Below, piece by piece: positions 798 through 63,864 of a DNA stretch of 64,000 nucleotides. Origin of the DNA: an uncultured Pseudomonadota bacterium. Its GTDB lineage: Bacteria; Oederibacteriota; Muellerivitia; Muellerivitales; Muellerivitaceae. The first letter of the stretch is position 1; each line of letters begins with the position of its first letter. The notes below the pieces were generated by a model, which saw only the letters and a list, made by a program, of their open reading frames with translations, was not told where the DNA came from and ran no database searches. Made by a program: the position numbers and the translations under genes. The stretch is taken from the NCBI GenBank assembly GCA_963770835.1, contig CAVYRH010000016.1, positions 1 to 64,000 on the forward strand, read 5' to 3'.

Positions 798-827
798 ATG
801 TCCACGACGGGGACCCGCATTGTACAA
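798..827 (+). repeat. 30-bp palindromic site, copy 1 (ATGTCCACGACGGGGACCCGCATTGTACAA)
   Basis: Matches consensus TTGTCCACGACGGGGACCCGTCGTGGACAA; 3 nt after the protease stop, between convergent genes. Confidence 0.85.
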
Positions 828-837
828 AGAAAAAACA

Positions 838-1473
838 TCAATGAAATTTATTGGCGGAAGGGCACCACTTGGCCAGGGTACAAACATTACATAATGGTTT
901 TCTTGCGTCGCAAACCTTGCGGCCGTGCTGGATCAGGCGGTGGGAGAAGTGAAGCCACTCTTCCTTGGGGACGATCTTCATTAAGTCCTGTTCGATTTTG
1001 ACGGCGTCCTGGTGCCGGGTCCATCCCAATCGGTTACTGAGCCGGGTAACGTGGGTATCCACGGTGATCCCTTCCGAGATGCCGTAAACCTCTCCCAGTA
1101 CCACATTGGCGGTCTTGCGGCCCACACCCGGGATCTTCACCATTTCTTCGATGGTCTTCGGCATCTTCCCTTTATATAAACCCAATAAGGCCTGGGCGGC
1201 GCCCAGAAGGTTTTTGGCCTTGTTGTGGTAAAAGCCGGTGGACTTGATGATTTTTTCGATGTCCTTGATCTTGGCGCGCGCCAATTTTTCGGGAGTGGGG
1301 AAGACCTTGAAAAGTTCGGGGGCTACCATGTTCACGCGCTCGTCCGTGCATTGGGCCGACAGGATGACGGCGCACATCAATTGGAAGGGTGTTTGGTAGC
1401 GCAGGAAGCAGCGGGTGTCGGGGTAGAGGCGCTGGAGTTCCTTGATGATTTTGGATGTGTTCGGATTCGGCAA
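838..1473 (-). CDS. nth: Endonuclease III
   Basis: ILSAQCTDERVN, HhH motif IPGVGRKTANVV, VDTHV, Fe-S motif CDARKPLCNVC..C; TTG start at 1473 inferred. Confidence 0.95.
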   Translation of the reverse strand: MPNPNTSKIIKELQRLYPDTRCFLRYQTPFQLMCAVILSAQCTDERVNMVAPELFKVFPTPEKLARAKIKDIEKIIKSTGFYHNKAKNLLGAAQALLGLYKGKMPKTIEEMVKIPGVGRKTANVVLGEVYGISEGITVDTHVTRLSNRLGWTRHQDAVKIEQDLMKIVPKEEWLHFSHRLIQHGRKVCDARKPLCNVCTLAKWCPSANKFH

Positions 1474-1488
1474 CGAAAACCTCTTTAT

Positions 1489-1572
1489 CCACGGATGAAC
1501 ACGGATAAACACGGATGGGAAAAAGAAATATAATCTTCGGGGTTATCCGAGTTAATCCGTGTGCATCCGTGG
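1489..1572. repeat. Intergenic palindromic element of ~10-bp periodic units (CACGGAT.../ATCCGTG)
   Basis: ccacggatgaacacggataaacacggat ... atccgagttaatccgtgtgcatccgtgg. Confidence 0.7.
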
Positions 1573-1667
1573 CAAAATTGTTTGGCCGTTGGCTTGGAAA
1601 ACACCGAGCGGCTACTTATGATAACGTCCCAGCTTGGGGAATCAACGAGTAAGGAAATTCAACGCTC

Positions 1668-2645
1668 ATGCCCATCATCGAGGTCGAGAACCTTTCCAAA
1701 ATCTACCGCACCCAAAAACGCATGCCGGGGTTGGCCGGCGCGGTGCAGGGGCTCTTCAACCGCCAGTTCACCGAAGTTCGGGCGGTGGACGGGGTTTCCT
1801 TCAACATCGAGGAAGGGGAACTGGTGGGGTTCCTGGGGCCCAACGGGGCGGGGAAGACCACGACGCTCAAGATGCTTTCCGGCATCCTTTACCCCACTTC
1901 CGGCACCGCCAAGGTCATGGGGTTCATCCCCTCCGAGCGCAAAAACGAGTACCGCCGCCAATTCGCCCTGGTGATGGGCCAAAAGAACCAGCTTTGGTGG
2001 GACCTGCCGGCCCAGGAATCCCTGTTCCTCAACAAGGAAATCTACGGTGTTTCGGACGGGGATTACAAGGAAACCTTGGATGAAATGACCGAGCTCCTGC
2101 AGGTGAAACGCCTCCTGGGGATCATGGTCCGGGAGCTTTCGCTGGGCGAGCGCATGAAATTCGAATTGATCGCCTGCCTGCTTCACCGGCCCCGGGTGCT
2201 GCTTTTGGACGAACCCACCATCGGGCTGGATGTGGTGGCCCAAAAGAACATCCGGGAATTCATCAAGGACTACAACCGGCGCACCAAAACCACCATCCTC
2301 TTGACCAGCCATTACATGAACGACATCCAGGCCCTTTGCGAGCGGGTGGTGGTCATCAACCACGGCAAGAAGATCTTCGACGGGCGCCTGGACGACGTGG
2401 TGGAGAAGTTTTCCCAAACCAAGCTCATCACCATCACCTTCAAGAACGGGGGGGTCTCCCCGGAACAATTGGCGGCCTTGGGGCAAGTGCTGGAAAACAC
2501 CAAGGTCAAGGCGGTCCTCAAGGTGCCCCGGGAGGAAGTTAAAAAAGCCTCCAACGAGATCCTGCACCGGTTTGACGTGGATGACATCAACATCGAGGAA
2601 GTGCCGATCGAGGAAGTGATCGAGAAGGTGTTTAAAGGCGGTTGA
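1668..2645 (+). CDS. ABC transporter ATP-binding protein
   Basis: Walker A GPNGAGKTT, LSLGERMK signature, LLLDEPT. Confidence 0.95.
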   Translation: MPIIEVENLSKIYRTQKRMPGLAGAVQGLFNRQFTEVRAVDGVSFNIEEGELVGFLGPNGAGKTTTLKMLSGILYPTSGTAKVMGFIPSERKNEYRRQFALVMGQKNQLWWDLPAQESLFLNKEIYGVSDGDYKETLDEMTELLQVKRLLGIMVRELSLGERMKFELIACLLHRPRVLLLDEPTIGLDVVAQKNIREFIKDYNRRTKTTILLTSHYMNDIQALCERVVVINHGKKIFDGRLDDVVEKFSQTKLITITFKNGGVSPEQLAALGQVLENTKVKAVLKVPREEVKKASNEILHRFDVDDINIEEVPIEEVIEKVFKGG

Positions 2646-2706
2646 CAGCCGGCAGTCCGCAGCCAGCCGGCCGCCGGTAATGCCTTTCCTGCCGACTGTC
2701 GACTGG

Positions 2707-2862
2707 GTGGTGACTCAGTTTGAGTTGAACAACCTTAAGGCACCCCTCACCCTACCCTCTCCCCCAAGGGGCGAGGGTTTTTAGTGGTTTTTCCCCTCTC
2801 CCTTGAGGGGAGAGGGCGGGGTGAGGGTGGAGTAACATTTTCTTTTCAAACTGATGCACTAC
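2707..2862. mobile_element. MITE-like element carrying a REP-like CCCTCACCC...GGGTGAGGG palindrome, inserted in a GTCGACT heptamer tract
   Basis: Imperfect terminal inverted repeats GTGGTGACTCAGTTTGA / TCAAACTGATGCACTAC; related inverted copy ends at 7456. Confidence 0.6.
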
Positions 2863-3767: not shown

Positions 3768-3769
3768 AG

Positions 3770-4681: not shown

Positions 4682-4938
4682 AGCGAGGTTTAAGTTTTAC
4701 GCAGTTTTCCATTTGAGTGGGGCCTTCGGCCCCAAAACGTAAACTGCGTCACCCTCATTACCTTGGTCGGGCTTTGCCCGAAATTAAATAGGATGAATGA
4801 GGGTAAGTTATGAGTTTTTAGTTTTGAGTTAAGGAATGTTTTTCCGCCTTTCGGCGGAAAAACTGCCAAAACTCAACACTCAAAACTTAGAACTCAAAAC
4901 TGTTTGACCCTTTTTGGGGTCAAACATAGAATGTCGCC

Positions 4939-7209: not shown

Positions 7210-7456
7210 TAACCCGACTTTGGCAAAAAAACCTCGCCACCTGGGGGAGAGGGTAGGGTGAGGGGTGCGACGCCAAGTAAAATCACCCTCACCCCGCCCA
7301 TCTCCCTAACGGCGCTCATAGGGAAGATCCCCTATGTACCCTCAAAACCAAAGCCTCAAGGGAGAGGGGGAAACAGCACTAAAAACCCTCGCCCCTTGGG
7401 GGAGAGGGTAGGGTGAGGGGTGCCTTAAGGTCGTCCAATTCAAACTGATGCACTAC
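7206..7456. mobile_element. Second MITE/REP-like element related to 2707-2862
   Basis: 7377-7430 is the reverse complement of part of the first element; same TCAAACTGATGCACTAC end; left end uncertain. Confidence 0.55.
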
Positions 7457-7498
7457 CAAACACCTTTGTTTTCACACCTTTTTTAATTTTGGGATAAA

Positions 7499-18311: not shown

Positions 18312-18341
18312 ATTCGAATTTCGCACCCCCATCGTGGATAA
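18312..18341 (-). repeat. 30-bp site, inverted degenerate copy (TTATCCACGATGGGGGTGCGAAATTCGAAT)
   Basis: Left arm identical to that of the 20087 copy. Confidence 0.6.
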
Positions 18342-19069: not shown

Positions 19070-19180
19070 ATTATGAATTTTTAATTTTGAATTTTTGAAA
19101 TTTTTGAACCGTTGGTTCAAAAATAATCATTAACTCAAAACTCAACACTCAGAACTCAAAACTTATTTTGGGGGTTTTTA

Positions 19181-20050: not shown

Positions 20051-20086
20051 CAGTTCACAGTCGGCGGTTCGCAGTAAAGGCTTTTT

Positions 20087-20116
20087 TTATCCACGATGGG
20101 GAGGCATTGCGTATGA
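20087..20116 (+). repeat. 30-bp site (TTATCCACGATGGGGAGGCATTGCGTATGA)
   Basis: Conserved left arm and central GA; contains GGAGG and the ATG of the next ORF. Confidence 0.7.
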
Positions 20117-21000
20117 AAGGCCTAAGACTGAATTGGCGGTATTTGATACTTGTTTTTATCGCTTGCGCGTTTAGCTTTCAGGAACCTCTTTTTAGCAGAG
20201 AAAATTCTAATACTGGGGGCATCACTCGCGAACAACTAATGAAATGGCTTGATGCCGTGACGGCGCCATTGTCCAAACCATCGGGGACATTAACGCCGGA
20301 ACAATTGAAATGGGGCGAAAAGCAATTAAAGCAAATGCTGAAAGACCGGCCGGCCATGGCTCTTTACGTGACTCAGGGGGATGATCTTTGGAACTGGACT
20401 GTCCGGCAGTTCGCTGGGGAAGTTTCCGGGGTGGAAGTGGGCTGGAACAACACCTGGTACGGTCCGGAAGCCGGTGGACGTAATGACCGGGACGCCGCGA
20501 CGACTTTTTGGCCTCCTAGCGACAAAATCCACGTAACCGTGACCGCTAAATATGGTGGCCTGGGGAACTTGAAAAACCAGGCCGAACTGAAAGGGAAACC
20601 GAAAGACGGCCCCATGCTTTGGTACGATACCATTTTTGAATTATTCAATTCGCAGAAAATGGTCCGTTTCATGAAGGTTTGCCGGAGGGCCATGGAAGGC
20701 AAAATCGACCGCGAGACTTTTATCCTGGAAATCGACATGGTAGAGAATGGAACCCGAAAGGAGGCTTTCGATTTCTACCAAAATATTTTTATTAAAAATT
20801 GCCAGGAAAAATCCCTACCCTTTCAAGACAGTGTTGTTGCTGACGAATTAAAGAACGCCACAGAACTTCAAAAGCAGTTTTACCCGGAAGACAGGATTGA
20901 CGAATTGATCTCTGGCAGGGAGTCGGTAGACCATTATCGGGCTTATGGGCAGATATACGATTCATTGATCGTTCCATACCTTCCCAAAAAGGGAACTTAA
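20113..21000 (+). CDS. Exported hypothetical protein (cassette-like)
   Basis: ATG 20113 with SD; signal-like N-terminus; flanked by two 30-bp sites. Confidence 0.7.
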   Translation: MKGLRLNWRYLILVFIACAFSFQEPLFSRENSNTGGITREQLMKWLDAVTAPLSKPSGTLTPEQLKWGEKQLKQMLKDRPAMALYVTQGDDLWNWTVRQFAGEVSGVEVGWNNTWYGPEAGGRNDRDAATTFWPPSDKIHVTVTAKYGGLGNLKNQAELKGKPKDGPMLWYDTIFELFNSQKMVRFMKVCRRAMEGKIDRETFILEIDMVENGTRKEAFDFYQNIFIKNCQEKSLPFQDSVVADELKNATELQKQFYPEDRIDELISGRESVDHYRAYGQIYDSLIVPYLPKKGT

Positions 21001-21010
21001 AGAATAGTGG

Positions 21011-21040
21011 TTGTCCACGAAGGGGACCCGTCGTGGACAG
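21011..21040 (+). repeat. 30-bp site (TTGTCCACGAAGGGGACCCGTCGTGGACAG)
   Basis: 28/30 to consensus, 10 nt after a stop codon. Confidence 0.9.
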
Positions 21041-21524: not shown

Positions 21525-21561
21525 CCTGCACATGCCTGTCGCAAAAAGGATGGTGTGCAAC
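21525..21561 (+). CRISPR. 37-bp CRISPR-like repeat, copy 1 (CCTGCACATGCCTGTCGCAAAAAGGATGGTGTGCAAC)
   Basis: Identical to 29111-29147, one mismatch to 37439-37475; TGCACA/TGTGCA dyad. Confidence 0.6.
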
Positions 21562-26321: not shown

Positions 26322-26323
26322 CG

Positions 26324-29110: not shown

Positions 29111-29147
29111 CCTGCACATGCCTGTCGCAAAAAGGATGGTGTGCAAC
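29111..29147 (+). CRISPR. 37-bp CRISPR-like repeat, copy 2
   Basis: Identical to copy 1. Confidence 0.6.
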
Positions 29148-35365: not shown

Positions 35366-35395
35366 TTGTCCACGACGGGGACCCGTCGTGGACAA
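35366..35395 (+). repeat. 30-bp site, perfect palindrome (TTGTCCACGACGGG-GA-CCCGTCGTGGACAA)
   Basis: 14-bp perfect arms around GA. Confidence 0.95.
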
Positions 35396-35434: not shown

Positions 35435-35944
35435 ATGAAGATAAAAGTTTATAAAAAAATATTCGTGATATCTGCAATCCTTTCTTTTGCCCCAATTCTT
35501 GGTTTTTCTGACGACTTCGACCTAAAAGATTCCCATCCAGAAATTCTTAAAGGTAATGTTTATGAAATAAAATCGATGGGGTCCGTCCCTATAGGCCAGG
35601 GAATTTATATCGATATGGTGATTGATCCATCCCAAGAGGAAATAATTCTAAAACGCTTCAAATTTAAGGAGGGGGCAGATTGGGGTGTAGTTTCAAACGA
35701 CTCCAAGGATACGATTCATTTGGATTCGATTAAGAAGGACGGCGATTCAAAGGTGATCATCGTTGGTTCTGAGGCCCAAGACACGGATGGAATTAAGGTT
35801 AAGATCGAATTGTCGGCTTTTGATCAATCTCGAGCCCAATTTACTGAAGCCCTAGTAGATATCATTTGTGATGTTGATCATGGAAGCGGTGATTTAACAT
35901 TATCATTAAAAAAATTGCACCTTCGGGCAATTAAGGTTAAATGA
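35435..35944 (+). CDS. Exported hypothetical protein (cassette-like)
   Basis: GGAGG SD, signal peptide, AT-rich, between two sites. Confidence 0.7.
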   Translation: MKIKVYKKIFVISAILSFAPILGFSDDFDLKDSHPEILKGNVYEIKSMGSVPIGQGIYIDMVIDPSQEEIILKRFKFKEGADWGVVSNDSKDTIHLDSIKKDGDSKVIIVGSEAQDTDGIKVKIELSAFDQSRAQFTEALVDIICDVDHGSGDLTLSLKKLHLRAIKVK

Positions 35945-35970: not shown

Positions 35971-36000
35971 TTGTCCACGACGGGGACCCTTCGTGAACAA
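35971..36000 (+). repeat. 30-bp site (TTGTCCACGACGGGGACCCTTCGTGAACAA)
   Basis: 28/30 to consensus. Confidence 0.92.
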
Positions 36001-36073
36001 CGAAAATAATGGATAATGGTAGTCAGGCACTTTCAGCATAAAGATGGTTTACAAAATTTGGGGGGCAGACCAC

Positions 36074-37084
36074 ATGGACTTGCTTATTGATACTTACGGT
36101 ACCAAGATCGGCGTAAATGGCGAGCGCATCGTCCTTTCTTTTCCGAAAGTTAAAGAGAAAAAAGAATACCCCATCCATAGACTGGAGAAAATAGTCATAC
36201 TGCGGCCGGCCTCGCTCACGACTCACGCGGTTCAGCTCGCGATTGAGCACGATGTTGATATCGTCTATCTCGGTTCTTTTGGCAAGCCCATCGGAAGACT
36301 ATTTTCAAGCGAACCAAAAGGGCTGGCGAGTCTTCGTAAAGCGCAACTGGAAGCGTCAACTTCGCTTGAGCGATCGTTCAAAATCGCGAAAGAATTAGTG
36401 CGGGGCAAATGCGCTAATCAGCTCGATCTACTCCGATATCTCGCGTACCGATATAAAAAGGATGTGGGGACCGAACTCTTACAAGCGCAGACCCTTTTTG
36501 ATGTCTTGGACAATGTCCCGTGTTCGGAGAAAGGCAAGGAGCAACTCCTTGGTACGGAAGGATACATCGCGGACAAATATTTCAGCGGGTTAAAAAAATT
36601 CTATAGATTCCCGGGCCGAAAACCACAAGGCAGGGACCAGTTTAACAGCGTACTGAATTATGGTTACGGCATCCTTTACAATGAAGTCGAACGGGCATGC
36701 CTTTACGTCGGTCTTGATCCATATCTCGGCCTCTACCACAGTGAACGCTATGGTAAGCCTGCCCTCGTTCTCGATCTTGTCGAAGAATTCCGCGTACCAA
36801 TCGTCGACTCGGTGCTTTTCCCGCTTTTCATAGAAAAGAAACTGAGCCAACGGAAATATTTTGAAAAAACCGCGGTTGGGCAATATCTGTTATCGCCTGA
36901 GGGAAAAAGCGTCGTGGTGGGGGCGATCATGAGGCGGTTGAATGAAACGACGGCATGGCGGGAGAAACAATATACTCTTAAGCAGATCATAGATAACCAG
37001 ATTAGGGCGTTGGCACGTCACTTTGTCGAAAAGGAGGACAAGTACAACCCGTTTCGTGCGGAAAAACTTTTTTCGATATCATGA
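36074..37084 (+). CDS. cas1: CRISPR-associated endonuclease Cas1
   Basis: LLGTEG, NSVLNYGYGILY, GLDPYLGLYH, LVLDLVEEFR; catalytic E/H/E present. Confidence 0.95.
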   Translation: MDLLIDTYGTKIGVNGERIVLSFPKVKEKKEYPIHRLEKIVILRPASLTTHAVQLAIEHDVDIVYLGSFGKPIGRLFSSEPKGLASLRKAQLEASTSLERSFKIAKELVRGKCANQLDLLRYLAYRYKKDVGTELLQAQTLFDVLDNVPCSEKGKEQLLGTEGYIADKYFSGLKKFYRFPGRKPQGRDQFNSVLNYGYGILYNEVERACLYVGLDPYLGLYHSERYGKPALVLDLVEEFRVPIVDSVLFPLFIEKKLSQRKYFEKTAVGQYLLSPEGKSVVVGAIMRRLNETTAWREKQYTLKQIIDNQIRALARHFVEKEDKYNPFRAEKLFSIS

Positions 37085-37416
37085 ACAATTTCAATGCCAT
37101 CACCCTAGTATCGTGGGAAACGCGCGACTGGCGGCATCGGGACAAGGCGGTTCTGTGGTGCAAGAATTATGGTCTCAAGCCGGTTTTACGGAATATGTAT
37201 ATCGGAAAATTGTATTCAAAAGAACGGGAAAAACTCGAGAATAAATTCAAGGGGGCTTTCGCAAAGAAGACCGAAAAGTTTTTTATCAGTACGCTCTGTC
37301 GGTCGTGCTTTGAAGATTCGGTTTTCGGTGGTACGCTTAGTTCTAAGAAAGATGATGTCGACATTGAAACTGCGTTTGAACTTATCCAAATCACGCCGAA
37401 TTCGGCGGAACGGTGA
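37081..37416 (+). CDS. cas2: Divergent Cas2-like protein
   Basis: ATGA-coupled to cas1; LVSWE, CKNYGL, YIGKL, LCRSC follow the Cas2 pattern. Confidence 0.75.
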   Translation: MNNFNAITLVSWETRDWRHRDKAVLWCKNYGLKPVLRNMYIGKLYSKEREKLENKFKGAFAKKTEKFFISTLCRSCFEDSVFGGTLSSKKDDVDIETAFELIQITPNSAER

Positions 37417-37438
37417 AAAACACCAATAATTGCAGGCT

Positions 37439-37475
37439 CCTGCACATGCCTGTCGCAAAAAGGATAGTGTGCAAC
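37439..37475 (+). CRISPR. 37-bp CRISPR-like repeat, copy 3 (one variant base), 22 bp after cas2
   Basis: CCTGCACATGCCTGTCGCAAAAAGGATAGTGTGCAAC. Confidence 0.65.
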
Positions 37476-40484: not shown

Positions 40485-40496
40485 TTGTCCACGACG
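40485..40496 (+). repeat. Left part of a 30-bp site interrupted by the intron
   Basis: TTGTCCACGACG joined to 42438-42455 (GGGAGCCGTGATGGGTAA) rebuilds a 30-bp site. Confidence 0.85.
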
Positions 40497-42437
40497 GTGC
40501 GTCCAGAAAAGGCAGGTGTGTTCAGCAAGAGATAGTCTTGCATGGGTAATAGCCAAAGCCCATTAGCTAGGATGGCAGGCAAGCGGGAAACCAAATGCCT
40601 GAAGCCCATCAACAAAGCCATCGAAAGGATGGTGAGCGAGTCGTCGGGCCGTAACGAAAGTAAATGCACAGGTGGCCCCGAAAACACTTGCCTCGGAGGC
40701 TGAGTCCGCCGTCGTGGGACGAAAGCATCATGGGACAGCGCGGAGAAATGGCTGAAGCGCTGGAACACTCCGACGGGGTGATAGCAACGGCACGAAGACA
40801 AGGACACGCCAAGCAACTGGAGAAACCCTCCTTGCCCCAGGCAGAAATGCTTGGAGAAAGGTAGGCCGTATAACCGTGACGCGGGAAAACGGTCGAAGGT
40901 GAGAGGGTTTAGGATGGGTTCATGGTAGCGATGAAGCGGGGTAATGCCCGTGGAGCGAAGGAACCCTGCTGTTGTTAAGTCCCTCGACAAAACGGAAGGC
41001 AGTGACGGTATGAAAAAGACGTCAATTAACCTGCAAGACCTGAGACGAGAGATATACGTCAAAGCGAAGGCTGAAAAGAACTGGAGTTTCTGGGGACTGT
41101 ACACCCATGTTTGCAAGATGGAAACGCTTCAACAGGCTTACCGAATGGCTAAGGTAAATAACGGAGCCCCTGGAATAGATGGGGTGACGTTTGATGCCAT
41201 TGAGGAGGCCGGAGTGGAGTCGTTTCTGGAAAGCATCCGGGGTGAATTAGTTCAAGGCACGTATAAGCCCGTTCGAAACCGGAAGAAGGAAATACCCAAG
41301 GGAAATGGGAAGGTAAGAGTCCTTGGGATACCCAACATTCGGGATAGAGTAGTCCAGGGAGCACTGAAGTTTATTCTGGAACCGATTTTTGAGGCCGATT
41401 TTCAAGAAGGGTCCTATGGGTATCGACCCAAGCGGACCGCTCATGCGGCTGTGAACAGGGTAGCATCGGCAATCGTCTGTAGAAAAACCCGAGTCATTGA
41501 TGTAGACCTCAAGGCATATTTCGACACGGTAAGGCACGACCTTCTGATGAAGAAAGTTGCCCGAAGGGTTGAGGATGAAACGGTGTTGAGATTGTTGAGG
41601 ATGATCCTGAAGGCCAGCGGCAAAAGAGGAGTCCCGCAGGGAGGGGTTATTTCCCCTCTTCTGGCTAATCTCTACCTCAACGAGGTGGATAAGATGCTGG
41701 AAAAGGCAAAAGAAGTGACTCGGCAAGGGAAGAACAACTATATCGAATATGCGAGGTTCGCTGACGATATGGTGATCCTTGTTAATGGATATCCGCAATG
41801 GGAATGGTTGGCAAAGGCTGCCTACCGAAGGTTACTTGAAGAATTGACCAAGCTCGACTTGCAAATCAACACGGACAAGACGCGGATAGCAGACTTAACG
41901 AAAGGTGAAAGTTTCGGGTTTCTGGGGTTTGACTTTCGACAGGTGAAAACCCGTCGAGGGAAATGGGGGGTGAAGTTCACGCCGAAAATGAAGGCGCGAG
42001 CAACACTTCTGGGTAAGCTCAAGGAAACATTTGGAAGCTTCCAATCTCAGCCGGTGCAGAGGGTGATTGAGATTATCAATCCCAAACTGCGTGGGTGGGT
42101 GAATTACTTTCGGATAGGGAATTCTAGGCGCTGTTTTAACTACGTGGAAAGATGGGTCGAGAATAAAATCAGACGGCATATGATGCGTGCGAAGAAGCTC
42201 GACGGTTTTGGGCGGGATAGGTGGAGTAGGGAGTGGATATATAAGTATCTGGGGTTGTACAGAAGCTACCAAATACGATATTACCAAGAACCGAAAGCGC
42301 TACCCGTCTGATAGGTCACATAAACTTTGACAGGAAAGCAACAGGTGAGCGTAGTGCGGGAAATCCGCACGCTACGTTCGAGGAGGCGGGGACTGGAAAC
42401 GGAGCCAGAAGGCCACCGCACCAGTCCTCGACCCTAC
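40497..42437 (+). mobile_element. Group II intron, apparently full length
   Basis: 5' GTGCG, domain V GAGCGTAGTGCGGGAAATCCGCACGCTACGTTC (42347-42379), domain VI ending CCCTAC, RT ORF inside. Confidence 0.93.
41010..42311 (+). CDS. ltrA: Group II intron reverse transcriptase/maturase without endonuclease domain
   Basis: GAPGIDG, RVLGIP, GVPQGGVISPLLANLYL, RFADD, LRGWVNYF. Confidence 0.95.
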   Translation: MKKTSINLQDLRREIYVKAKAEKNWSFWGLYTHVCKMETLQQAYRMAKVNNGAPGIDGVTFDAIEEAGVESFLESIRGELVQGTYKPVRNRKKEIPKGNGKVRVLGIPNIRDRVVQGALKFILEPIFEADFQEGSYGYRPKRTAHAAVNRVASAIVCRKTRVIDVDLKAYFDTVRHDLLMKKVARRVEDETVLRLLRMILKASGKRGVPQGGVISPLLANLYLNEVDKMLEKAKEVTRQGKNNYIEYARFADDMVILVNGYPQWEWLAKAAYRRLLEELTKLDLQINTDKTRIADLTKGESFGFLGFDFRQVKTRRGKWGVKFTPKMKARATLLGKLKETFGSFQSQPVQRVIEIINPKLRGWVNYFRIGNSRRCFNYVERWVENKIRRHMMRAKKLDGFGRDRWSREWIYKYLGLYRSYQIRYYQEPKALPV

Positions 42438-42470
42438 GGGAGCCGTGATGGGTAAGTAAAAGCTGAAATT

Positions 42471-47447: not shown

Positions 47448-47553
47448 TTGGATTTTGAAAGAAAAAAATGATTGAAAAACAGAATATAAAAGCTAACTCC
47501 AACTCGATACTGCCATTTGGCAAGCAGAAATCAATTTGGGGAGGGGGCACCAA

Positions 47554-49817: not shown

Positions 49818-50997
49818 ACCCCGCATTCTGACGATCAATGGCGGCTCCTCAAGTATCAAGTTTGACTTATTCGAGATCGGCGACCCCTTGCTCCGGATCC
49901 TGGCGGGAAAGATTGACCGGATTGGATTACCGGATGCCACCTTGCGGGTCAAGGGACCGGCTCCTTTGGATAATTTTTCACGACCAGTTAAAGTGCCCGA
50001 TCACAAGTCGGCGGTAGGTGTATTGATGGATTGGATAGGGGAACGTGGCGGCCGTGATGCCTTGGCGGCAGTAGGACACCGGGTGGTTCATGGAGGGCCG
50101 AATTATAGCGATCCGAAAATAATCACAAGAGAAATGATCGATGAGTTACGGCTACTCAAGACATTTGATCCTGAACACCTACCGGAAGAGATCATGCTGA
50201 TCGAGGCTTTTCATCACCAGTTTCCCGACTTGCCCCAAGTGGCCTGTTTCGACACGGCTTTCCATAAAAAATTGCCGCGCGTGGCCCAGTTGTTGCCGAT
50301 TCCGCGCCGGTACGAAGCAAAGGGGGTACGCCGGTACGGATTTCACGGGTTGTCATATTCGTACCTCATGGGGGAGTTGACCCGCTTGGCCGGGGCGGAG
50401 GCGGCTCAAGGACGGATCATACTTGCCCACCTTGGCAATGGCGCGAGTCTGGCGGCGGTCTGGAAAGGAAATTCCCTGGACACAAGTATGAGTTTTACAC
50501 CCGCAGCCGGAGTGCCGATGGGTACACGTTCCGGGGATATTGATCCCGGATTGTTTGGTTACCTGGCGCGCGAAGAGGGAATTGACGCCAAGGGATTCAA
50601 CGAAATGCTTAATTTCAAATCTGGACTCATAGGGGTATCAGAAACCAGTTCGGATATGAGTGATTTGTTGAAAAGTGAAACGACAGACCCACGGGCGGCG
50701 GAGGCTGTAACATTATTTTGCTACCAAGTCAAAAAATGGATCGGCGCTTTTGCGGCGGCTTTAGGCGGACTGGACACGTTGGTATTCTCAGCCGGTATCG
50801 GCGAAAACGCGCCCACGGTCCGTGGCCGGATTTGCGATGGATTGGAATTCCTTGGAATAGAGCTCGAGGAAAAACGGAACTCGGCGAACGAGGGAGTGAT
50901 ATCCAAAGACAAAGGCAGGGTTAGCGTCCGTGTCATTCGCACGGACGAGGAATTCATGATCGCCAAGATGGTTTGCCGCCTTCTCGACATCGGCTGA
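49804..50997 (+). CDS. ackA: Acetate/propionate kinase
   Basis: [30 protein letters not shown]. Confidence 0.93.
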
Positions 50998-51013
50998 AAA
51001 AGGAGGATTTAAA

Positions 51014-53383: not shown

Positions 53384-54408
53384 ACAACCAAGAATTGATG
53401 GATGCTGTGAGGTCGCTGGTCGCGGGGGACAAGGGCCTATTGGCGATGGATGAAAGCAACACGACTTGCAACGAGCGATTCGCCAAGTTGGATATTCCAC
53501 AGACCGAGGATGCCCGGCGCGCTTATCGGGAGTTGATCATTACGACTCCCGGCCTTTCGGATTCCATCAGCGGAGCTATCCTCTATGACGAGACTATCCG
53601 CCAGAAAACGAAAGACGGAATCCCCTTCGTAAAGGCCCTCACCGATTTGGGAATCATACCCGGTATCAAAGTGGATACGGGAGCGAAGGAGTTGGCAGGC
53701 CATCCGGGAGAGCGTGTCACCGAGGGACTGGATGGTTTGCGGGGACGCTTGGCCTATTATTCCCAATTGGGCGCCCGATTCGCCAAGTGGCGCGCCGTCA
53801 TAGCCCTGGGCGACGGACTGCCCAGTTTGGGTTGCGTCGAGGCGAACGCACATGCTTTGGCCCGTTACGCCGCCCTGTGCCAGGAAGTCGGATTGGTCCC
53901 CATTGTGGAGGCGGAGGTTCTGATGGATGGGGCGCATGACCTTCAGCGTTGTTTCGAAGTGACCGAGGAAACACTCCGGACGGTTTTTATCCAGCTTCAC
54001 GCCCAACGAGTCATGCTGGAGGGCATGATCCTGAAGCCCAACATGGTACTTCCGGGATGGGCCTGTTCCCGGCAGGAATCGGTAGAAGAAGTGGCCGACG
54101 CGACGGTGGGGTGTCTTTTGCGGTCCGTTCCCGCCGCCGTTCCCGGAATTGCCTTCTTGTCGGGGGGACAATCCGCCGAATTGGCCTCGGAGCGTTTGAA
54201 CGCCATGAACGTACGGTTTAAATCCCGGTTGCCTTGGGCTTTGTCCTTTTCCTTCGCCCGGGCCATCCAGCAACCCGCATTGGAGATTTGGATGGGCGAG
54301 GAAGCCCATGTGGCGACCGCGCAGAAAGCCCTGTTTCACCGGGCCACGTGCAATCGGGCCGCAAGACAGGGCAAATACAACGCTGATATGGAAAGAGCAA
54401 AAGTATGA
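53380..54408 (+). CDS. Class I fructose-bisphosphate aldolase
   Basis: [28 protein letters not shown]. Confidence 0.93.
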
Positions 54409-54446
54409 CGACAAACATACCCCCACCCGCGAAACCTGCGGTATAG

Positions 54447-56431
<1,985 letters not shown>

Positions 56432-56439
<8 letters not shown>

Positions 56440-56761
56440 AAAACCTGAAGCCGGGAACGGGAAAGATCCGACAGGGTTCAGTCGTGAGGTTGGCGAGAAG
56501 GCGGAACGCAAGATCAAGGCCCAACGGAATCCCGTCAAGGGCGTCTGGTTTGGATTGGGCATGATGGGGCTTATTGGCTGGTCGGTGGTAGTTCCGACCC
56601 TGCTCGGCGCGGCACTTGGTATATGGTTGGACAAACGGCATCCGGGCGGCCATTCCTGGACGTTGGCCCTCATGGCGGCGGGACTGGCGATTGGATGCAT
56701 GAACGCCTGGCATTGGGTGGCCCAACAGGACAAGGAAATGGGGGAGGACCAAAATGACTGA
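56432..56761 (+). CDS. AtpZ/AtpQ family protein
   Basis: GLGMMGLIGWSVVVP, GIWLD. Confidence 0.85.
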
Positions 56762-57071
56762 TCTTTTAAAAATGGGGATGGTTTTGGCGGTTGGGGTCCT
56801 GATAGGCGGAATATTCTTTGGCGGCCTCTGGTGGACGATCCAGAAAGGGGCTTCGATCAAACGGCCAGCCTTATGGTTCCTCGGCAGCTTGTTGTTACGG
56901 ATGGGGATCACCTTGGGTGGCTTCTATTTCATCGCGCACGGACATTGGGAGAGGTTTCTTGTATGTTTGCTGGGATTTTTAATTGGCCGATATATCGTGA
57001 CTCGGCTTACCGGTGGGGTGGAAAAACCGAAAATCCTGGCACAGGGGGTCGGCGATGCGCCTTACTCCTGA
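56754..57071 (+). CDS. atpR: N-ATPase AtpR subunit
   Basis: FFGGLWWT, SLLLR. Confidence 0.85.
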   Translation: MTDLLKMGMVLAVGVLIGGIFFGGLWWTIQKGASIKRPALWFLGSLLLRMGITLGGFYFIAHGHWERFLVCLLGFLIGRYIVTRLTGGVEKPKILAQGVGDAPYS

Positions 57072-57852
57072 TGAGATGATCTTTTGGCATCATGGTTTTC
57101 TCAAACTCAATGGAACCATTGTTTTCACTTGGGGGCTCATGTTCGTCCTGACGGTGGGTTCCAAGATCCTCACCCATAAACTATCGACCGGGTCGGACCG
57201 TTCCCGATGGCAAAACCTGCTTGAAATTCTCGTCACCGCCATTGAGAAGCAAATCCAAGAGGTGGGTTTGAGCCGGCCCGAGAAATATATCGGCTTCCTT
57301 GGCACCCTTTTTCTTTTTGTCGCCTCAGCCAGCCTTTGCACGGTCATTCCCGGCTACGAGCCGCCCACCGGATCTCTCTCGACCACTGCCGCGCTCGCCT
57401 TGTGCGTGTTCGTGGCCGTGCCCTTCTTCGGAATCGAGGATCAAGGGTTGGGAAACTACCTCAAGTCCTACATGAAGCCCACCTTCATCATGCTGCCTTT
57501 CAACATCATCAGCGAACTTTCGCGTACATTGGCCCTGGCCGTCCGTTTGTTCGGCAACATGATGAGCGGGGCGATGATCATCGCCATCCTGCTCACCATC
57601 ACGCCGTTTGTTTTCCCGATCATAATGATGGTCCTCGGCCTGCTCACCGGCATGGTTCAGGCCTATATTTTCAGCATCCTGGCCGGTGTTTATATCGCGG
57701 CGGCCACAAGGGTTCGAAAACCCAAGCCTGAAACGGATTCAAAACCGGAAGGCAAGGGTGGGGCGAAGTCTGGCGTACAAGTCGATCCTAAGCCTGGGGC
57801 CGAACCAGAAAAGGAGGCTACAGCCAATTCTTTGCCAGTTTTGAATCATTGA
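57055..57852 (+). CDS. atpB: ATPase subunit a
   Basis: LAVRLFGN, VQAYIF. Confidence 0.93.
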   Translation: MRLTPDEMIFWHHGFLKLNGTIVFTWGLMFVLTVGSKILTHKLSTGSDRSRWQNLLEILVTAIEKQIQEVGLSRPEKYIGFLGTLFLFVASASLCTVIPGYEPPTGSLSTTAALALCVFVAVPFFGIEDQGLGNYLKSYMKPTFIMLPFNIISELSRTLALAVRLFGNMMSGAMIIAILLTITPFVFPIIMMVLGLLTGMVQAYIFSILAGVYIAAATRVRKPKPETDSKPEGKGGAKSGVQVDPKPGAEPEKEATANSLPVLNH

Positions 57853-57882
57853 AGAAAAAATATAAAAATAAAAGGAGGAATT

Positions 57883-58164
57883 ATGGATAGCTTAACGATT
57901 ATCGGAGTGGCATCGATTGTCATCGCGGGCATTACCACCGGTTTCGGGACGATGGGGCCCGCCCTAGCGGAAGGGAGGGCGGTCGCGACAGCCTTGACTT
58001 CACTGGCCCAACAGCCGGACGCCTCCGCCACCATCACCCGGACCTTGTTCGTGGGACTGGCGATGATCGAGTCCACGGCCATCTATTGTTTTGTGGTCTC
58101 GATGATTCTCATCTTCGCCAACCCCTTCTGGAACCACGCTATCGCCCAAGTGGCGGGAAAGTAA
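57883..58164 (+). CDS. atpE: ATPase subunit c with Na+-type ligands
   Basis: ALAEG, AQQP, IESTAIY. Confidence 0.95.
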   Translation: MDSLTIIGVASIVIAGITTGFGTMGPALAEGRAVATALTSLAQQPDASATITRTLFVGLAMIESTAIYCFVVSMILIFANPFWNHAIAQVAGK

Positions 58165-58168
58165 GCTC

Positions 58169-59338
58169 ATGCTCATCGATTGGTTTACTGTCATCGCCCA
58201 GGCGCTCAACTTCCTCATCCTGGTATGGCTGATGAAGCGCTTTTTATATAAGCCCATCCTCAAGGCCATCGATGAGCGGGAAAAAAGGATCGCCGCCGAA
58301 CTCGCGGAGGCGGACAAGAAGAAGACCGAAGCCCAAAAGGAAGGCGACGAGTACAAACGCAAAAACGAGGACTTTGACCGGCAACGCGATGCGCTATTGA
58401 ACCAGGCGACGGCAGAAGCCCAAGCTGAACGCCAGCGGCTTCTCGCGGAGGCAAGGAGGGCCGCAGAGGATTTAAGCTTTAAACGCCAGGAGGCGTTGAA
58501 GGCGGAAGAACATGACTTGCACCAGGCCATCCGCCGCCGGACAGGGAAGGAAGTATTTTCCATCGCGCGAAAGACGCTGTCTGATCTCGCCGGTTCAGTG
58601 TTGGAGGAGCGAATGGCGGACCTGTTCATCCTGCGTTTGCGGAAGATAGAAGGCCAGGCGAAAGCCGACCTCGCCGGGGCTCTTCGGTCGGCTCATGAAC
58701 CGGCGCTAGTTCGAAGCGCTTTTGACTTACCTTTGGATTTGCGAGATTCCATCCAGAAGGCGTTGAATGAGACTTTTTCATCCGAGATTCGGGTCCGTTT
58801 CGAAACCGCCCCCGAATTGATCAACGGCATCGAACTCACTGCAAATGGACAAAAACTAGCATGGAGTATCGAGGATTACCTGGCGTCGATGGAAAAAGGT
58901 GTGGAGGATATCCTGAAAGAGAAGGATAAAACCGCGAGCAAAGCATCGTCCGATTTGACGCCACGGATCGCCAAGCGCGCTTACGAACTGTATGAGATGC
59001 ATGGACGCAAAAACGATTCGGCGAGCCAGGATTGGAGTCAGGCGGAAGGGGAGATTCGCAAGACGGGTATCAAAGCCGAACCTAAACCCGAAATCAAAGT
59101 CGAACCTAAAGTGGAACTTAAAGCACCGGCAAAACCCGAGACCAAAGCCGAAACCAAAAATGAAGGCGAGGTCTCGGTTAAGCCAAAAGCCGATGTTGCC
59201 CCTAAACCTGAAGTCAAAGCTGGTGCTGAACCTGAAATTAAAAGTGGGGCAAAAATAGTTGTCAAAGCCGAACCCGAGCCGGAAGTCAAAGTGGAACCCA
59301 AGCCGGAAAAAGTTATTCCCGGAGCAAAGAGTCAATGA
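58169..59338 (+). CDS. atpF: ATPase subunit b (delta-like fusion) with extra DUF2934 and PEK tail
   Basis: [35 protein letters not shown]. Confidence 0.9.
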
Positions 59339-61026
59339 ACACGGAAACCGAAAGTCTCGAAAGCGTTTTTGAAAGCGCGTTTGCCGGAATAGCCCAAACT
59401 CTGGAAGCGACCAAGCCCCAACTGAAGCCACGAGAGGTTGGAACGATCATGAGTGTCGGCACCGGCATTGCAAAAGTTTCGGGCCTCCCCGGTGTGGGCT
59501 TTGAGGAATTGATCGAATTTCCCGGCGATGTGCTCGGCATCGCTTTTAACGTTGACGCCGACGAGATCGGCGTGGTCCTGCTCGGCGAATACTGGCATTT
59601 GCGGGCGGGGGATGAAGTGCGGCGAACGGGCCGGGTCATGGATGTGGTCGTGGGCGAGGGATTGCTTGGCCGGGTCATTGATCCCCTGGGATGCGCCCTG
59701 GATGAGAACGGCCCAGTGGTTTCCAGCGGGCGCCTGCCCGTCGAACGCCCCGCCGCGCCCATCATGGACCGGGCTCCAGTCACGGTACCCCTCCAGACGG
59801 GCCTCAAGGTCATTGACGCGCTTATCCCCATCGGGCGGGGCCAAAGGGAGTTGATCCTCGGCGACCGGCGGACGGGGAAGACAGCCATCGCCATCGATAC
59901 TATCCTCAACCAGCGGGACCAGAACGTATTGTGTGTTTATTGTTTCATCGGTCAGCGGGCATCCGCCGTCGCGAAGGCCGTGGCAACCTTGCGGGAAAAA
60001 GGCGCGATGGATTACACCGTCGTCGTCGTGACGGAGGGCAATGATCCTCCTGGCCTCACTTATCTCGCTCCCTACGCCGCCACCAGCATCGCGGAGTCCT
60101 TCATGGAATCGGGCCGGGATGTTTTGATCGTTTACGATGACCTTACCCATCACGCGCGAGCCTACCGCGAACTCTCCCTACTACTGAACCGTCCGCCGGG
60201 CCGGGAAGCCTTTCCGGGCGACATCTTTTACATCCACTCAAGGATGCTCGAACGGGCGACGCACTTGGGTAAGGAACTCGGGGGAGGTTCCCTTACCGCG
60301 CTCCCCATCATTGAGACCCAGGCCCAGGATATTTCTGCCTATATTCCCACGAACCTGATCTCTATAACGGATGGGCAGATCTACCTCTCGCCCTCGCTGT
60401 TTGAATTGGGCGTGCTGCCTGCGGTCGATGTCGGGAAATCCGTTTCGCGGGTTGGGGGAAAGGCGCAACGCGCGGCCTACAGGGTGGTGGCAGGAGACCT
60501 CAAGCTCGCCTATGCACAGTTCGAGGAACTTGAGACTTTTTCCAGGTTCGGCGCAAGCCTGGATGAAAACACCCACAAAGCCATTGAGCATGGACGTCGG
60601 ATACGTTCCTGCCTGAAACAGCCGGAAGGAGCCCCGGTGTCCGTTCCCGCCCAGATTACCGTCCTGTTGGCGTTGGGGGAGAAGCTCTTCGACCTTGTGC
60701 CTTTGGACCGAATGAAGGACGCTGAGCAAGCCCTGCTTGAAGCCTCGGCGAAACTGCCGGGGGAGGTTCGAGGGAGATTGGAGTCCTCCGAAAAATTGAG
60801 CGGCAAGGATCGTGAAATGATCATCCAAATCGCCCGTGATTCGCTTGGCCCCTTCCAACCCAAACCCGAACCAAAGCCGGAGATCAAAACGGAAACTCCA
60901 ATCAAGCCCCAGCCTGGGTCCAAACCGGAACCCAAGATGGAGATAATGCCGAAACCTGGACCTGTGGGAAAACCGGAAAATAAAACGGAAGCCAAAAGAA
61001 AGCCTGAACCCGAGGTTAAATCGTGA
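59335..61026 (+). CDS. atpA: N-type ATPase alpha subunit
   Basis: [29 protein letters not shown]. Confidence 0.95.
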
Positions 61027-61916
61027 GCAACACAACCGCCAGCCTCCGCCGAAAGATCGCCGGTGCCAGGGATCTTCAATCAGTCGTCCGAACGATGAAG
61101 GCCGTGGCCGCATCCAGTATCGGGCAATACGAGAATTCGGTTCGTGCCTTGGCCGACTACTATCATGCCGTTGAACTGGGTTTGGGTGTTTGCTTCAGGG
61201 CAAGCGGGCCGGTTTCCGATGTTGAAGTAAAGAATGGGAAACAAAAAGTGGGAGCCATTGGGGCGGTCGTTTTCGGCTCGGACCAGGGCCTCGTGGGTCA
61301 ATTTAACGAAGTGGTTGCGGATTTCGCCGTAAAAACTCTTTCGGCCTTTCCATCCAAATCCGAGGTCTGGGCCGTTGGGGAACGTGTTTATGCGCGACTT
61401 GCGGAAGCGGGCCTGCCCTTGATGGGGGTATTAACCGTGCCAAATTCCGTCAAGGCAATAACCCCGCTAGTCGGGCAGATTCTCATGGAAAGCGAGGAGC
61501 GCCGGGACAAGGGCGAAATCAGCGAACTCCACCTTTTCTACAATCGCCCGACATCAGGGGCCGTTTACGCGCCCGTGACCCAGCGGCTTCTGCCCTTGGA
61601 CGAAAACTGGAGACGCAAGCTTGCAGGACTTCCCTGGCCGACGGGATACCTGCCCGAGGTTATGGGTGTAGGCGCCGAGACGTTACAGGCTTTCCTGAAC
61701 GGATATCTTTTCGTTTCCCTTTTTCGGGCCTGCGCCGAATCCCTAGCCAGCGAGAATGCGAGCCGTTTGGCTTCAATGCAACGTGCGGACAAGAACATCA
61801 ATGAATTGTTGGAGGAACTCAACGTCAATTTCCATCGATTGCGTCAAAGTGGAATTGATGAAGAACTTTTCGACGTCATCTCTGGATTCGAGGCCTTAAA
61901 CGGTAAGGAGAAATGA
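61023..61916 (+). CDS. atpG: N-type ATPase gamma subunit
   Basis: [29 protein letters not shown]. Confidence 0.93.
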
Positions 61917-61956
61917 TGGTTGGCGACAAAACTTATAACCGGCCTAGTTTAGGAAG

Positions 61957-61986
61957 GTCTCCACCCTGGGGAGGCGAATAGGACAA
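61957..61986 (+). repeat. 30-bp site, degenerate (GTCTCCACCCTGGGGAGGCGAATAGGACAA)
   Basis: TCCAC, TGGGGAGG and GGACAA at consensus positions. Confidence 0.65.
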
Positions 61987-62024
61987 AGGGAAAAGGTTAG
62001 GCAGCGGTAAATAAAAAGGAGGTT

Positions 62025-62282
62025 GTGATGAAGATTAACATCAAAGCGTTCGGATTGGCTTGTGGTTTGTTGTGGGGCCTGGGAGTTTTAGGCCTGACTT
62101 GGTGGGTCATCCTTTTCGAGGGGTCAACCCACGACCTGATGTTGCTTGGACACATCTATCGGGGTTATGACATCAGCCCCGCCGGAAGTTTGATTGGGGC
62201 TGCGTATGGGCTTGTGGATGGAGGGGTGGGCGGTGTCGTTTTCGCCTGGCTTTATAACATCCTCTGCGTCAAGTTCAAATGA
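62025..62282 (+). CDS. Small two-TM membrane protein (cassette-like)
   Basis: AAGGAGG SD; AFGLACG..W, YRGY, FAWLYN; between two sites. Confidence 0.75.
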   Translation: MMKINIKAFGLACGLLWGLGVLGLTWWVILFEGSTHDLMLLGHIYRGYDISPAGSLIGAAYGLVDGGVGGVVFAWLYNILCVKFK

Positions 62283-62301
62283 TCAGGGGTTGAGTAGTAG
62301 G

Positions 62302-62331
62302 TTGTCCACGACGGGGACCCAGAGTGGACAG
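62302..62331 (+). repeat. 30-bp site (TTGTCCACGACGGGGACCCAGAGTGGACAG)
   Basis: First 19 nt identical to consensus. Confidence 0.9.
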
Positions 62332-62354
62332 AGAAAAAACGGAAGGGGTTTTAA

Positions 62355-63767
62355 ATGTCTAAACGGCAGGCAGTGGGAACCATCTTCCTTCTCTTTTTCC
62401 TTGCCCAACGAGTGTTCGCCATCAGTGATGACTGCCTTTTGGCCGAAAAGTCCGTGTTGATCGTGCGTGCCCGCCTTCATATTCAACAAAAAAACCTACT
62501 GAATCCAACCACCAAAAAAGAATATCGGGTACCCATCCGTTTGGAAATTATCGATGTTTTAAAAAAGGGCGATGAGGGGCTCAAGCAGGTTGAACTTACG
62601 GATGTCTACCCCGACACGAATCCCAAGTGGGATGCGGACGTTTGGATGAAAAAATACAGGGTGTTTGACGGGAAAGACGTATTGGTGTTTTTGCAAAAGA
62701 CCTACCTGCGGATTCCCGTGGCCGACCCCCAAAAAGACGATTCTTTCGTGCCGATGTACTACTTAACCCCTTTTGGTTCCTTTGTTTACGACCCCTCCCC
62801 GGATGCCTTAAGGCTTTATTCGGCCTCGGCGGCCAAGACCGTCCATGATTGTTTGTATGCGCCGACCCCAACGCCCCCACCTGTGCCCGAATGGGCTCTG
62901 AAGGCCATTGAAAAGACGGACTTCTCCTTTATCAAAACCGCAATCCACCGCCCGGATAACGACATGGACATTGGCCCGAGCTTGAAAGGAAAGAAGGTTG
63001 AAATCCCCAAAAAGATTCGGGCGGTCTTGCAGACCGAAGCCAAGGAGGATTTCGGGGGGCTGGTCAAATTTATAGCCCAGGATTCGGAAGGGTCGGGTGT
63101 CAAGGAGGATGAAATTTGGGATTATTACGGCCTCCATCCCCTTAAAACCTATGGCCCTGTTTACTTAGTCAAGGCCCCCAATGGGCTGGAAGTTTACGTT
63201 TTAATGAACCTCCGGTCGGGCTCCATGGGCGGGTGGAGTTACGGCTTGCTCCTCTATGACCCTAAAACCGGTAAAGCCAGTAAAAGTGCCACTTGGATTT
63301 CCGGCAAATGGCTGGATGGTTTGGATAAAGACTTAAGGATGTTCGAGGGGGACCGATGCCTCACGAAGCCCATGATCTCCTTCGATGACATCAACTCGGA
63401 CGGCCAAAAGGCTCTCGTAGTGGAGGAGCGGGTCCACAATGGGACCATGGTCAACGCGGGCATTTATCACTATTTCTTCATCGAGAAGGACTTGTCCCTT
63501 AAGGAAGTTCTAGAGTTGGAAGCCCGGTTGTTGAATTTGAACGATGAGTCGACCTGGTTTTACCGGAGAATCACCGCCCGGAAAAAGAACGAATTGACCG
63601 TGAAAGTCACTTTGGAAGGGGACGGGAAAAGCTCAACCCCCATTGGAACAATAGTTTTAAAAAGCGATGGGAACGACGCGCCTTTTAAGATGGACCATAA
63701 GAACGTCACAAATGGGGAATACAAGGATTTCATGTTTTTTTCGGAAGACGACGAATATTTCCGTTAA
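62355..63767 (+). CDS. Exported hypothetical protein with PTPTPP linker (cassette-like)
   Basis: Signal peptide, 470 aa, between two sites. Confidence 0.75.
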   Translation: MSKRQAVGTIFLLFFLAQRVFAISDDCLLAEKSVLIVRARLHIQQKNLLNPTTKKEYRVPIRLEIIDVLKKGDEGLKQVELTDVYPDTNPKWDADVWMKKYRVFDGKDVLVFLQKTYLRIPVADPQKDDSFVPMYYLTPFGSFVYDPSPDALRLYSASAAKTVHDCLYAPTPTPPPVPEWALKAIEKTDFSFIKTAIHRPDNDMDIGPSLKGKKVEIPKKIRAVLQTEAKEDFGGLVKFIAQDSEGSGVKEDEIWDYYGLHPLKTYGPVYLVKAPNGLEVYVLMNLRSGSMGGWSYGLLLYDPKTGKASKSATWISGKWLDGLDKDLRMFEGDRCLTKPMISFDDINSDGQKALVVEERVHNGTMVNAGIYHYFFIEKDLSLKEVLELEARLLNLNDESTWFYRRITARKKNELTVKVTLEGDGKSSTPIGTIVLKSDGNDAPFKMDHKNVTNGEYKDFMFFSEDDEYFR

Positions 63768-63834
63768 CTAAAAAAAGCAGAATGAACAGGGCTTTTATCA
63801 TTAAAAAGTAAAAAGGTCAGGAATTTATTAAATG

Positions 63835-63864
63835 TTGTCCACGATGGGGAGGTGTAGTAGACAA
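63835..63864 (+). repeat. 30-bp site (TTGTCCACGATGGGGAGGTGTAGTAGACAA)
   Basis: Conserved left arm, central GA, GACAA end. Confidence 0.85.

Follow-up and report, generated by a model that had tools for sequence, protein, structure and literature searches.

The 64,000-nt window analysed here, i.e., positions 1 to 64,000 of the forward strand of contig CAVYRH010000016.1, is contig C16 of an uncultured bacterial genome which we call G000, its relatives being numbered G001 onward. The window carries repeated copies of a 30-bp near-palindromic site, most of them a short distance past the stop codon of a gene lying in the same direction. We use “cassette” for a gene closed by such a site, and “array” for a run of cassettes. 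Arrays of this kind, made of co-oriented and exchangeable genes closed by sites, are firmly established.

An initial annotation of the window listed the motif at ten positions, and all ten hold the sequence it gave. As sites they differ in quality: six are strong (798, 21011, 35366, 35971, 62302 and 63835, with weight-matrix scores of 36–53), the one at 40485 is split by an intron, 20087 and 61957 hold degenerate forms, and we leave 18312 out of the count because its inverted copy is a doubtful look-alike (Table 1). Despite its null-range score, we accept 61957 as a degenerate site because G004 and G020 have clear sites at the same anchor after atpG, followed there by different genes. Stop-to-site distances in the window are 3, 10, 26, 19 and 67 nt. 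The annotation described the copy at 798 as lying between convergent genes, but it is the last site of a truncated array and the gene upstream of it is a cassette. It also called the bracketed open reading frames (ORFs) exported or membrane proteins; the one at 62025 is a holin, and those at 20113, 35435 and 62355 have only hydrophobic N-termini, recognised by eye rather than with a predictor.

Table 1. Sites, cassette genes and associated features, with positions in the window unless a contig is given
Feature	Position	Strand	Remarks
Cassette gene, Rce1-like CAAX protease (PF02517)	12..794	+	last cassette of array cut by contig start
30-bp site, 14-GA-14	798..827	+	score 38.1; last site of array cut by contig start
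Weak inverted look-alike	18312..18341	-	left arm only, centre GG; doubtful, uncounted; full score -8.5
Degenerate site	20087..20116	+	good left arm and GA; full score 7.4; synteny break after NAD kinase gene
Cassette gene	20113..21000	+	hydrophobic N-terminus; no family match (profile search)
30-bp site	21011..21040	+	score 48.9
30-bp site, perfect consensus	35366..35395	+	score 53.2
Cassette gene	35435..35944	+	hydrophobic N-terminus; no family match (profile search)
30-bp site, strong	35971..36000	+	right-arm variant moves with cas1 unit
Cargo unit	36044..37475	+	cas1 36044-37084; cas2-like ORF 37081-37416; 37-bp CRISPR-like repeat 37439-37475
Intron-split site, left 12 bases	40485..40496	+	rejoined site scores 29.8 without intron
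Group II intron (RF02003), 1941 bp	40497..42437	+	reverse transcriptase/maturase ORF 40944-42311 (RVT+GIIM)
Intron-split site, last 18 bases	42438..42455	+	
Degenerate first site after atpG	61957..61986	+	score 4.5, within null range
Cassette gene, holin (NF037947)	62025..62282	+	
30-bp site	62302..62331	+	score 48.0
Cassette gene, 470 aa	62355..63767	+	no family match
30-bp site, strong	63835..63864	+	array goes on in contig C23
Serine recombinase, 275 aa (P0001)	G000:C17:12078-12905		outside window; Resolvase (PF00239) and Recombinase (PF07508) domains
37-bp repeat/cas1 system	36044-37475, 21525-21561, 29111-29147; G000 C3:48634-101992, C3:383301-400905, C15		

Across G000, the weight matrix finds 88 full 30-bp sites, with none in a reversed-genome control whose maximum score was 5.4, and ten more sites are interrupted by one group II intron. 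The layout is 14-GA-14, with 13 bp in the well-kept arm. When the arms were scored separately and the centre left free, 86 of 89 sites had GA at positions 15–16 (null, 1). Mismatches averaged 0.85 in the arm 5' of GA and 2.30 in the 3' arm, which bears out the annotated pattern of a conserved left arm and centre with a variable right arm. Because the asymmetry appears in this unbiased scan, it is not a seeding artefact. Sites combining a good left arm and GA with at least five right-arm mismatches number 53, while 17 have at least four left-arm mismatches. There is a single site class, and sequence conservation stops at the 30 bp in the flank-sharing comparison described below. The annotation was right that the site lacks an attC signature: R boxes are absent from the consensus, the length is fixed and hairpin folding is not conserved among natural copies. 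A perfect site folds strongly (z about -7), whereas natural sites 63835 and 62302 give z=0.18 and z=-1.9, and the commonest inner-arm variants disrupt the hairpin pairing.

The site occurs in 27 of the 30 other genomes of the family (FCPU426), i.e., in 28 of 31 with G000, and in the one genome of the order's other family, with 0 to 92 copies per genome (G021 being the relative with the most, 92). It is absent from 29 other genomes of the phylum, all outside the order, and a search of viral contigs gave no match. All 88 G000 sites were examined for gene order: 85 have a nearby upstream ORF, which is co-oriented with the site in 77 cases, and the site lies a median 27 nt past the stop. On every G000 contig the clustered sites (all 88) share one orientation. 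In G004, orientation flips within contig C2 and across the xer gene on C1, so there it tracks the replichore. Between sites we count 284 distinct segments, with a median of 812 bp and a GC content of 45.6%, versus 54.5% for G000. Among 62 inter-site proteins scanned (from 90 listed), 28 have no Pfam match, and the remainder include toxin-antitoxin genes, acetyltransferases, hydrolases and mobile-element proteins.

Cassette capture and shuffling had been proposed from the window alone, and we examined the relatives for bracketed ORFs that were syntenic and had no breakpoints at the site. Instead, the bracketed genes are not syntenic in relatives, similarity ends at sites and the arms travel with their flanks. 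Regions of G001, G002, G003 and G020 that are syntenic to 0.8–20 kb of the window hold no site and no cassette, and the cassette gene at 20113..21000 was not found at the syntenic place in five relatives. Positions 8–817 are 94% identical to G020:C10, which is another array, and the match stops within site 798. Likewise, a 6252-bp match between the window and C12 stops at site 35366, beyond which C12 continues with other cassettes, and the cas1 cassette is 99% identical to G004:C1:431426-432929 in a match that begins at site 35971. The Rce1 (94%) and cas1 (99%) cassettes are thus shared with other genera, where flanking housekeeping DNA is about 69–80% identical. The holin has a 72% homolog at another place in G004, without sites. 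Within G000, four contigs carry an 861-bp cassette at 100% identity, next to three different neighbours on the left and two on the right, and repeated segments of 0.9–6.3 kb terminate at sites. Among the 284 cassettes, 26 pairs align end to end at 74–92%, all in the same orientation.

To locate the crossover, we compared 457 distinct sites in pairs that share one flank only. In the 37 pairs sharing only the downstream flank, the left arms differ at 52 places (67 expected) and the right arms at 23 (140 expected); in the 34 sharing only the upstream flank, the counts are 17 (62 expected) and 106 (129 expected), respectively. Position 17 differs in 6 of 34 upstream-sharing pairs versus 1 of 37 downstream-sharing pairs, and positions 12–16 never differ. 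Position 17 thus already goes with the right flank, and the comparisons put the exchange point somewhere from site position 11 to position 17, about the invariant GA, consistent with the central crossover that had been suggested. That each arm segregates with its own flank is the pattern that conservative recombination at the centre would leave. A jumping repeat or duplicated target is disfavoured because both arms would then stay together.

The annotation also supposed that the recombinase is encoded elsewhere, and a serine recombinase tightly linked to sites does lie outside the window, on contig C17 (Table 1). It is the only serine recombinase of G000 (the only PF00239 match), and its stop codon is 14 bp before an inverted site. 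This candidate refines the idea of a resolvase-type system, as it is a shortened large serine recombinase and not a resolvase of the gamma-delta type. It belongs to a short clade of 19 clusters (275–283 aa, 68–100% identical to the query, next match 59%) which group on one branch, with an SH-aLRT (Shimodaira–Hasegawa-like approximate likelihood-ratio test) value of 99, in a quick tree built from 70 of 120 listed matches. The zinc ribbon PF13408 is present in a 510-aa relative and absent from all 19 members, and the short recombinase also has no coiled coil. Its nearest relatives are integrases of ~510 aa, several of which end at tRNA-like sequence. Catalytic residues R16, S18, D87, R88 and R91 are invariant in the clade, and dN/dS (the ratio of nonsynonymous to synonymous substitution rates) does not exceed 0.08 in the catalytic part and is 0.07–0.33 in the DNA-binding part where computable (seven genes, several pairs saturated); judged by these ratios, the clade is under purifying selection. 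The predicted fold matches serine integrases in the PDB, in an AlphaFold model of modest confidence (predicted local distance difference test score 65.5) that speaks to fold identity only.

Among the loci compared, a site closely following the gene is confined to this clade. An inverted site lies 8–34 bp past the stop in eight of ten distinct clade loci, a ninth has an intron-split site and the tenth contig ends after 25 bp, while none of the 47 non-clade recombinase loci with enough downstream sequence has one. The recombinase-proximal site sits at the array tail, with the gene at the downstream end and converging on the array, and a promoter scan of 1.6 kb around the gene returned no sigma-70-like promoters. 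Searching with one query, we found junctions of a site with a gene tail in 9 of 31 genomes. The truncation points varied, and the 10 of 11 remnants examined had no common internal break, which fits repeated gene decay that leaves orphan arrays.

We infer that the short serine recombinase acts on the site, and it is the likely mover of the cassettes. Quite probably, then, the arrays consist of cassettes exchanged at the site centre by this 275-residue enzyme, which would bind the arms, cut at GA, and excise or reinsert the intervening gene. One dimer would occupy each site, reading about 13 bp per arm, and the 2-bp GA overhang would enforce like orientation on rejoining. With the attP/attB distinction lost, like sites could recombine, so cassettes would leave as circles and reinsert at any site. 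New cassettes would be born when a good left arm joined a poor chromosomal look-alike, and arrays would persist as orphans once the recombinase gene had decayed. In the available part of Rutherford 2013 (PMC3783163), 13 bp of each half-site are covered by the recombinase domain while the outer bases fall to the zinc domain, coiled-coil removal gives promiscuous intramolecular excision and no intermolecular integration, and zinc-domain removal weakens binding about 25-fold. From those domain data, an enzyme of just these first two domains would be expected to recognise 13+2+13 bp and to recombine like with like; the conserved span here matches.

Several observations weigh against this interpretation. 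The same partial source has the deletions binding weakly or unable to integrate, so capture would need a compensation, and we found none. Intact recombinase genes occur in only 5 of the 31 family genomes, as against sites in 28, and G021, with its 92 sites, yielded gene fragments only. The nine linked loci are not independent, because the linkage could descend from one ancestral junction, and the crossover pairs are not independent either. Positions 10–11 also vary among upstream-sharing pairs and, because positions 12–16 are invariant, the cut cannot be placed exactly at GA. A symmetric dimer explains neither the uniform site orientation per contig nor the stronger left arm. Poorer outer arms at array ends, which the scheme predicts, are barely seen (p=0.044 uncorrected for the last-site right arm, p=0.55 for the first-site left arm). 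Several G000 contigs overlap, so what we count as recurrence inside one genome may be recurrence among mixed strains. In sequencing-run contigs we found neither an excised circle nor a skip joint at any site, a search made on contigs only and not at the recombinase locus. The 62355 cassette is without cover in two of these runs, X1 and X3, and in one X3 contig site 62302 is followed by 69 other letters, which is no more than a weak hint.

Some of these difficulties would be eased if the arrays were real but moved by another enzyme (e.g., one acting on a single-stranded hairpin), with the short recombinase an old passenger or parasite at one site. The intact gene is rare, one orientation per contig that tracks the replichore in G004 could reflect strand-specific processing, a perfect site folds strongly, and two group II introns and an IS110 element likewise target the site. 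We nevertheless consider this unlikely, since natural sites fold poorly, with common inner-arm variants breaking the pairing, and since the recombinase shows purifying selection, invariably lies inverted and has domains that suit the arm length; moreover, the IS110 element sits at the site's outer edge and not at the crossover. Nor does G000 have an IntI above the cut-off: its best TIGR02249 match reaches 44.6 bits, whereas the cut-off is 265. None of its 12 tyrosine recombinases is an IntI; they include six integrases of ~360 aa, a cluster of three on C10 and two others. One integrase, of the ~360-aa group or another, has a site at a distance of ~0.7 kb (C26), and a further one is 1.8 kb from a site in G006, so these integrases stay conceivable as movers. 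It is far less probable that we are looking at a dispersed repeat, a terminator or an operator, with rearrangements due to ordinary homologous recombination or slippage between copies. Sites directly past stop codons, a possible hairpin and a copy number of 0 to 92 among genomes would suit such an element, but its two arms go with opposite flanks instead of moving as a unit, its centre is strictly asymmetric, whole genes are shared end to end across genera and the site is linked to a recombinase.

Two resident enzymes also had to be weighed. The host's single Xer, once our leading idea, might use the repeat as a dif-like 11-6-11 site in the manner of pdif modules: the repeat can be read as 11-6-11, and a distinctive Xer-like gene is present in 29 of 30 family genomes and in the order's one other genome, the same range as the site. 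We rejected it, and now regard it as highly improbable, because this Xer has its own dif-like palindrome, near a gene-strand switch. That AT-rich 11-6-11 palindrome stands directly upstream of the gene in 19 of 20 loci and is unrelated to the repeat, as the annotation's claim that the site has no dif signature would have it. In addition, positions 17–18 of the repeat differ between exchanged partners, and its centre is conserved, whereas the central regions of xrs are poorly conserved in the available part of 10.1101/2022.12.17.520857. At this locus (G000:C11 about 156020-156050) lies the only Xer found in G000, a gene which is single-copy across the order. The palindrome directly before its start codon shows compensatory changes and lies near the flip in gene-strand bias; it is probably the lineage's dif site. 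The other resident, the Cas1–Cas2 pair next to site 35971, could be imagined to write gene-sized spacers between repeats, since three G000 copies of cas1, and those of G004 and G014, come after a site. Distribution largely refutes this, and we give it next to no credence: cas1 occurs in only 5 of 31 family genomes, G027 and G030 have no 30-bp site before it, and it is paired with a separate 37-bp repeat whose inserts end mid-gene. A duplicated target would, furthermore, take both arms from one parent.

The cas1–cas2-like unit is instead cargo from that second, separate 37-bp-repeat system. Its cas2-like ORF clusters with Cas2 at 0.88–0.89, which is a lead only. G000 has 27 copies of the 37-bp repeat, 23 of them identical, mostly 0.9–12 kb apart, and several of the inserts are 99–100% copies of DNA elsewhere in the assembly, cut mid-gene and including a piece of cas1. 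The repeat is found in 7 of 61 genomes, among them all five with this cas1. We found no short-spacer CRISPR array with the unit, and no description in the literature of Cas1 with gene-sized spacers.

Other elements have settled on the site itself. The first group II intron lies after base 12 of a site in 10 of 12 genomic copies. A second intron family has 14 copies, of which 12 directly follow the right arm and the remaining two are preceded by degenerate look-alikes. This second intron (G000 C3:38313, C11:109926 and 12 more) is mostly present as ~800-bp forms without a reverse transcriptase gene, and some copies have that gene or an insertion sequence. A 1369-bp IS110-family element, found in either orientation (G000 C3:45329, C3:81922, C3:103116, C8:165073, C26:219210), abuts the site's outer edge in four of five copies with an intact left end. 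What looked like a cassette inversion was rejected for this reason, as IS110 had inserted at the outer edge of either arm.

Further observations concern the surroundings of the arrays. Genes for ArdC, RadC-like and toxin-antitoxin proteins recur beside arrays or the recombinase (G000 C17:5915-12077; G020:C9; G004:C4; G015:C19), which hints at a mobile-island carrier. At G014:C6:183000-191000, left-arm-only and degenerate sites form a dense group 40–600 bp apart, which may be a decayed or a cassette-forming zone. Downstream of the NAD kinase gene, four relatives have a block that in G000 is found at another place, behind a site (window 19181-21040; C3:412885, C12:26820, C25:28911), suggesting either chromosome rearrangement via sites or co-assembled strain variants. 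The phosphoglucomutase/phosphorylase/phosphoketolase/N-ATPase block at 43213-61916 is flanked by sites 40485 and 61957 and could be an island acquired by transfer; its atp end is 91–92% identical in G004 and G020, where sites follow too. Other dispersed intergenic repeats lie at 2704-2867, 7226-7466, 4694-4903 and 19062-19169, with many copies in same-genus genomes.

A broader reading, towards which we lean slightly less firmly than towards the enzyme's role, is that FCPU426 bacteria arrived at an integron of their own: after shedding both zinc ribbon and coiled coil, a tRNA-targeting large serine integrase would have come to act without direction on a double-stranded site of 30 bp, and would today power a pool of cassettes shared across genera. 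That pool would have attracted its own site-specific introns and IS110, and would carry a Cas1–Cas2 kilobase-spacer module as cargo. To our knowledge, the gene-cassette systems described so far depend on tyrosine recombinases (IntI, XerCD). One run by a serine recombinase would mean that cassette capture has arisen anew out of other components, and that a whole class of variable loci escapes integron finders. The enzyme would then be a naturally occurring minimal serine recombinase of 275 aa that operates on short sites of identical sequence and, with a 30-bp site whose 2-bp core can be changed, a potential cloning tool. Engineered proteins with the zinc ribbon or coiled coil deleted bind poorly and cannot integrate, as far as the available part of PMC3783163 goes, yet this natural clade is conserved without both. 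At the level of abstracts, we found no description of such a system, and the part of PMC8987985 available to us does not describe one.

The closest functional parallel is with integrons and CALINs (clusters of attC sites lacking integron-integrases), which in the available part of 10.1101/2024.07.02.601686, where IntI, attI, attC and Pc are the defining parts, are likewise arrays of small co-oriented gene units, each closed by a recombination site. Toxin-antitoxin and unknown cargo and the many arrays without an enzyme are further likenesses. The system works in an integron/CALIN-like way, yet it is neither, having no IntI and no attC; its site is a fixed 30-bp near-symmetric one with a conserved 2-bp centre, and its candidate enzyme is a serine recombinase at the array's downstream end. 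attC sites, too, are targeted by group II introns and by IS110/IS1111 elements. With the large serine recombinases (LI/A118, Bxb1, phiC31, SPbeta), the enzyme shares PF00239 and PF07508, the catalytic motifs and apparently the central-dinucleotide geometry, but it has neither zinc ribbon nor coiled coil, and it would use a 28–30-bp site instead of ~50 bp and many like sites instead of one attP/attB pair.

Small resolvases (gamma-delta/Tn3) have a ~28-bp crossover site with a 2-bp centre, and the site here presumably resembles gamma-delta resolvase site I, a likeness which we assume and for which we found no paper. The candidate, however, has a recombinase domain and not a small helix-turn-helix, a PF00239 search of G000 gave no small resolvase, and accessory res sites were not seen, though subsites were not searched for. 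The staphylococcal cassette chromosome (SCC) also consists of tandem units built by serine recombinases, but as large islands at one attB rather than single-gene cassettes. In the XerCD pdif/xrs modules, as the available part of 10.1101/2022.12.17.520857 presents them, small mobile gene units are flanked by short sites, the recombinase works in trans and insertion sequences adjoin the sites, all of which recalls the present arrays; here, by contrast, the sites do not resemble the dif-like site of this lineage, their centre is conserved and they are direct repeats in chromosomal arrays. Finally, where a CRISPR array grows by duplication of a whole repeat, the arms of this site segregate with their flanks.

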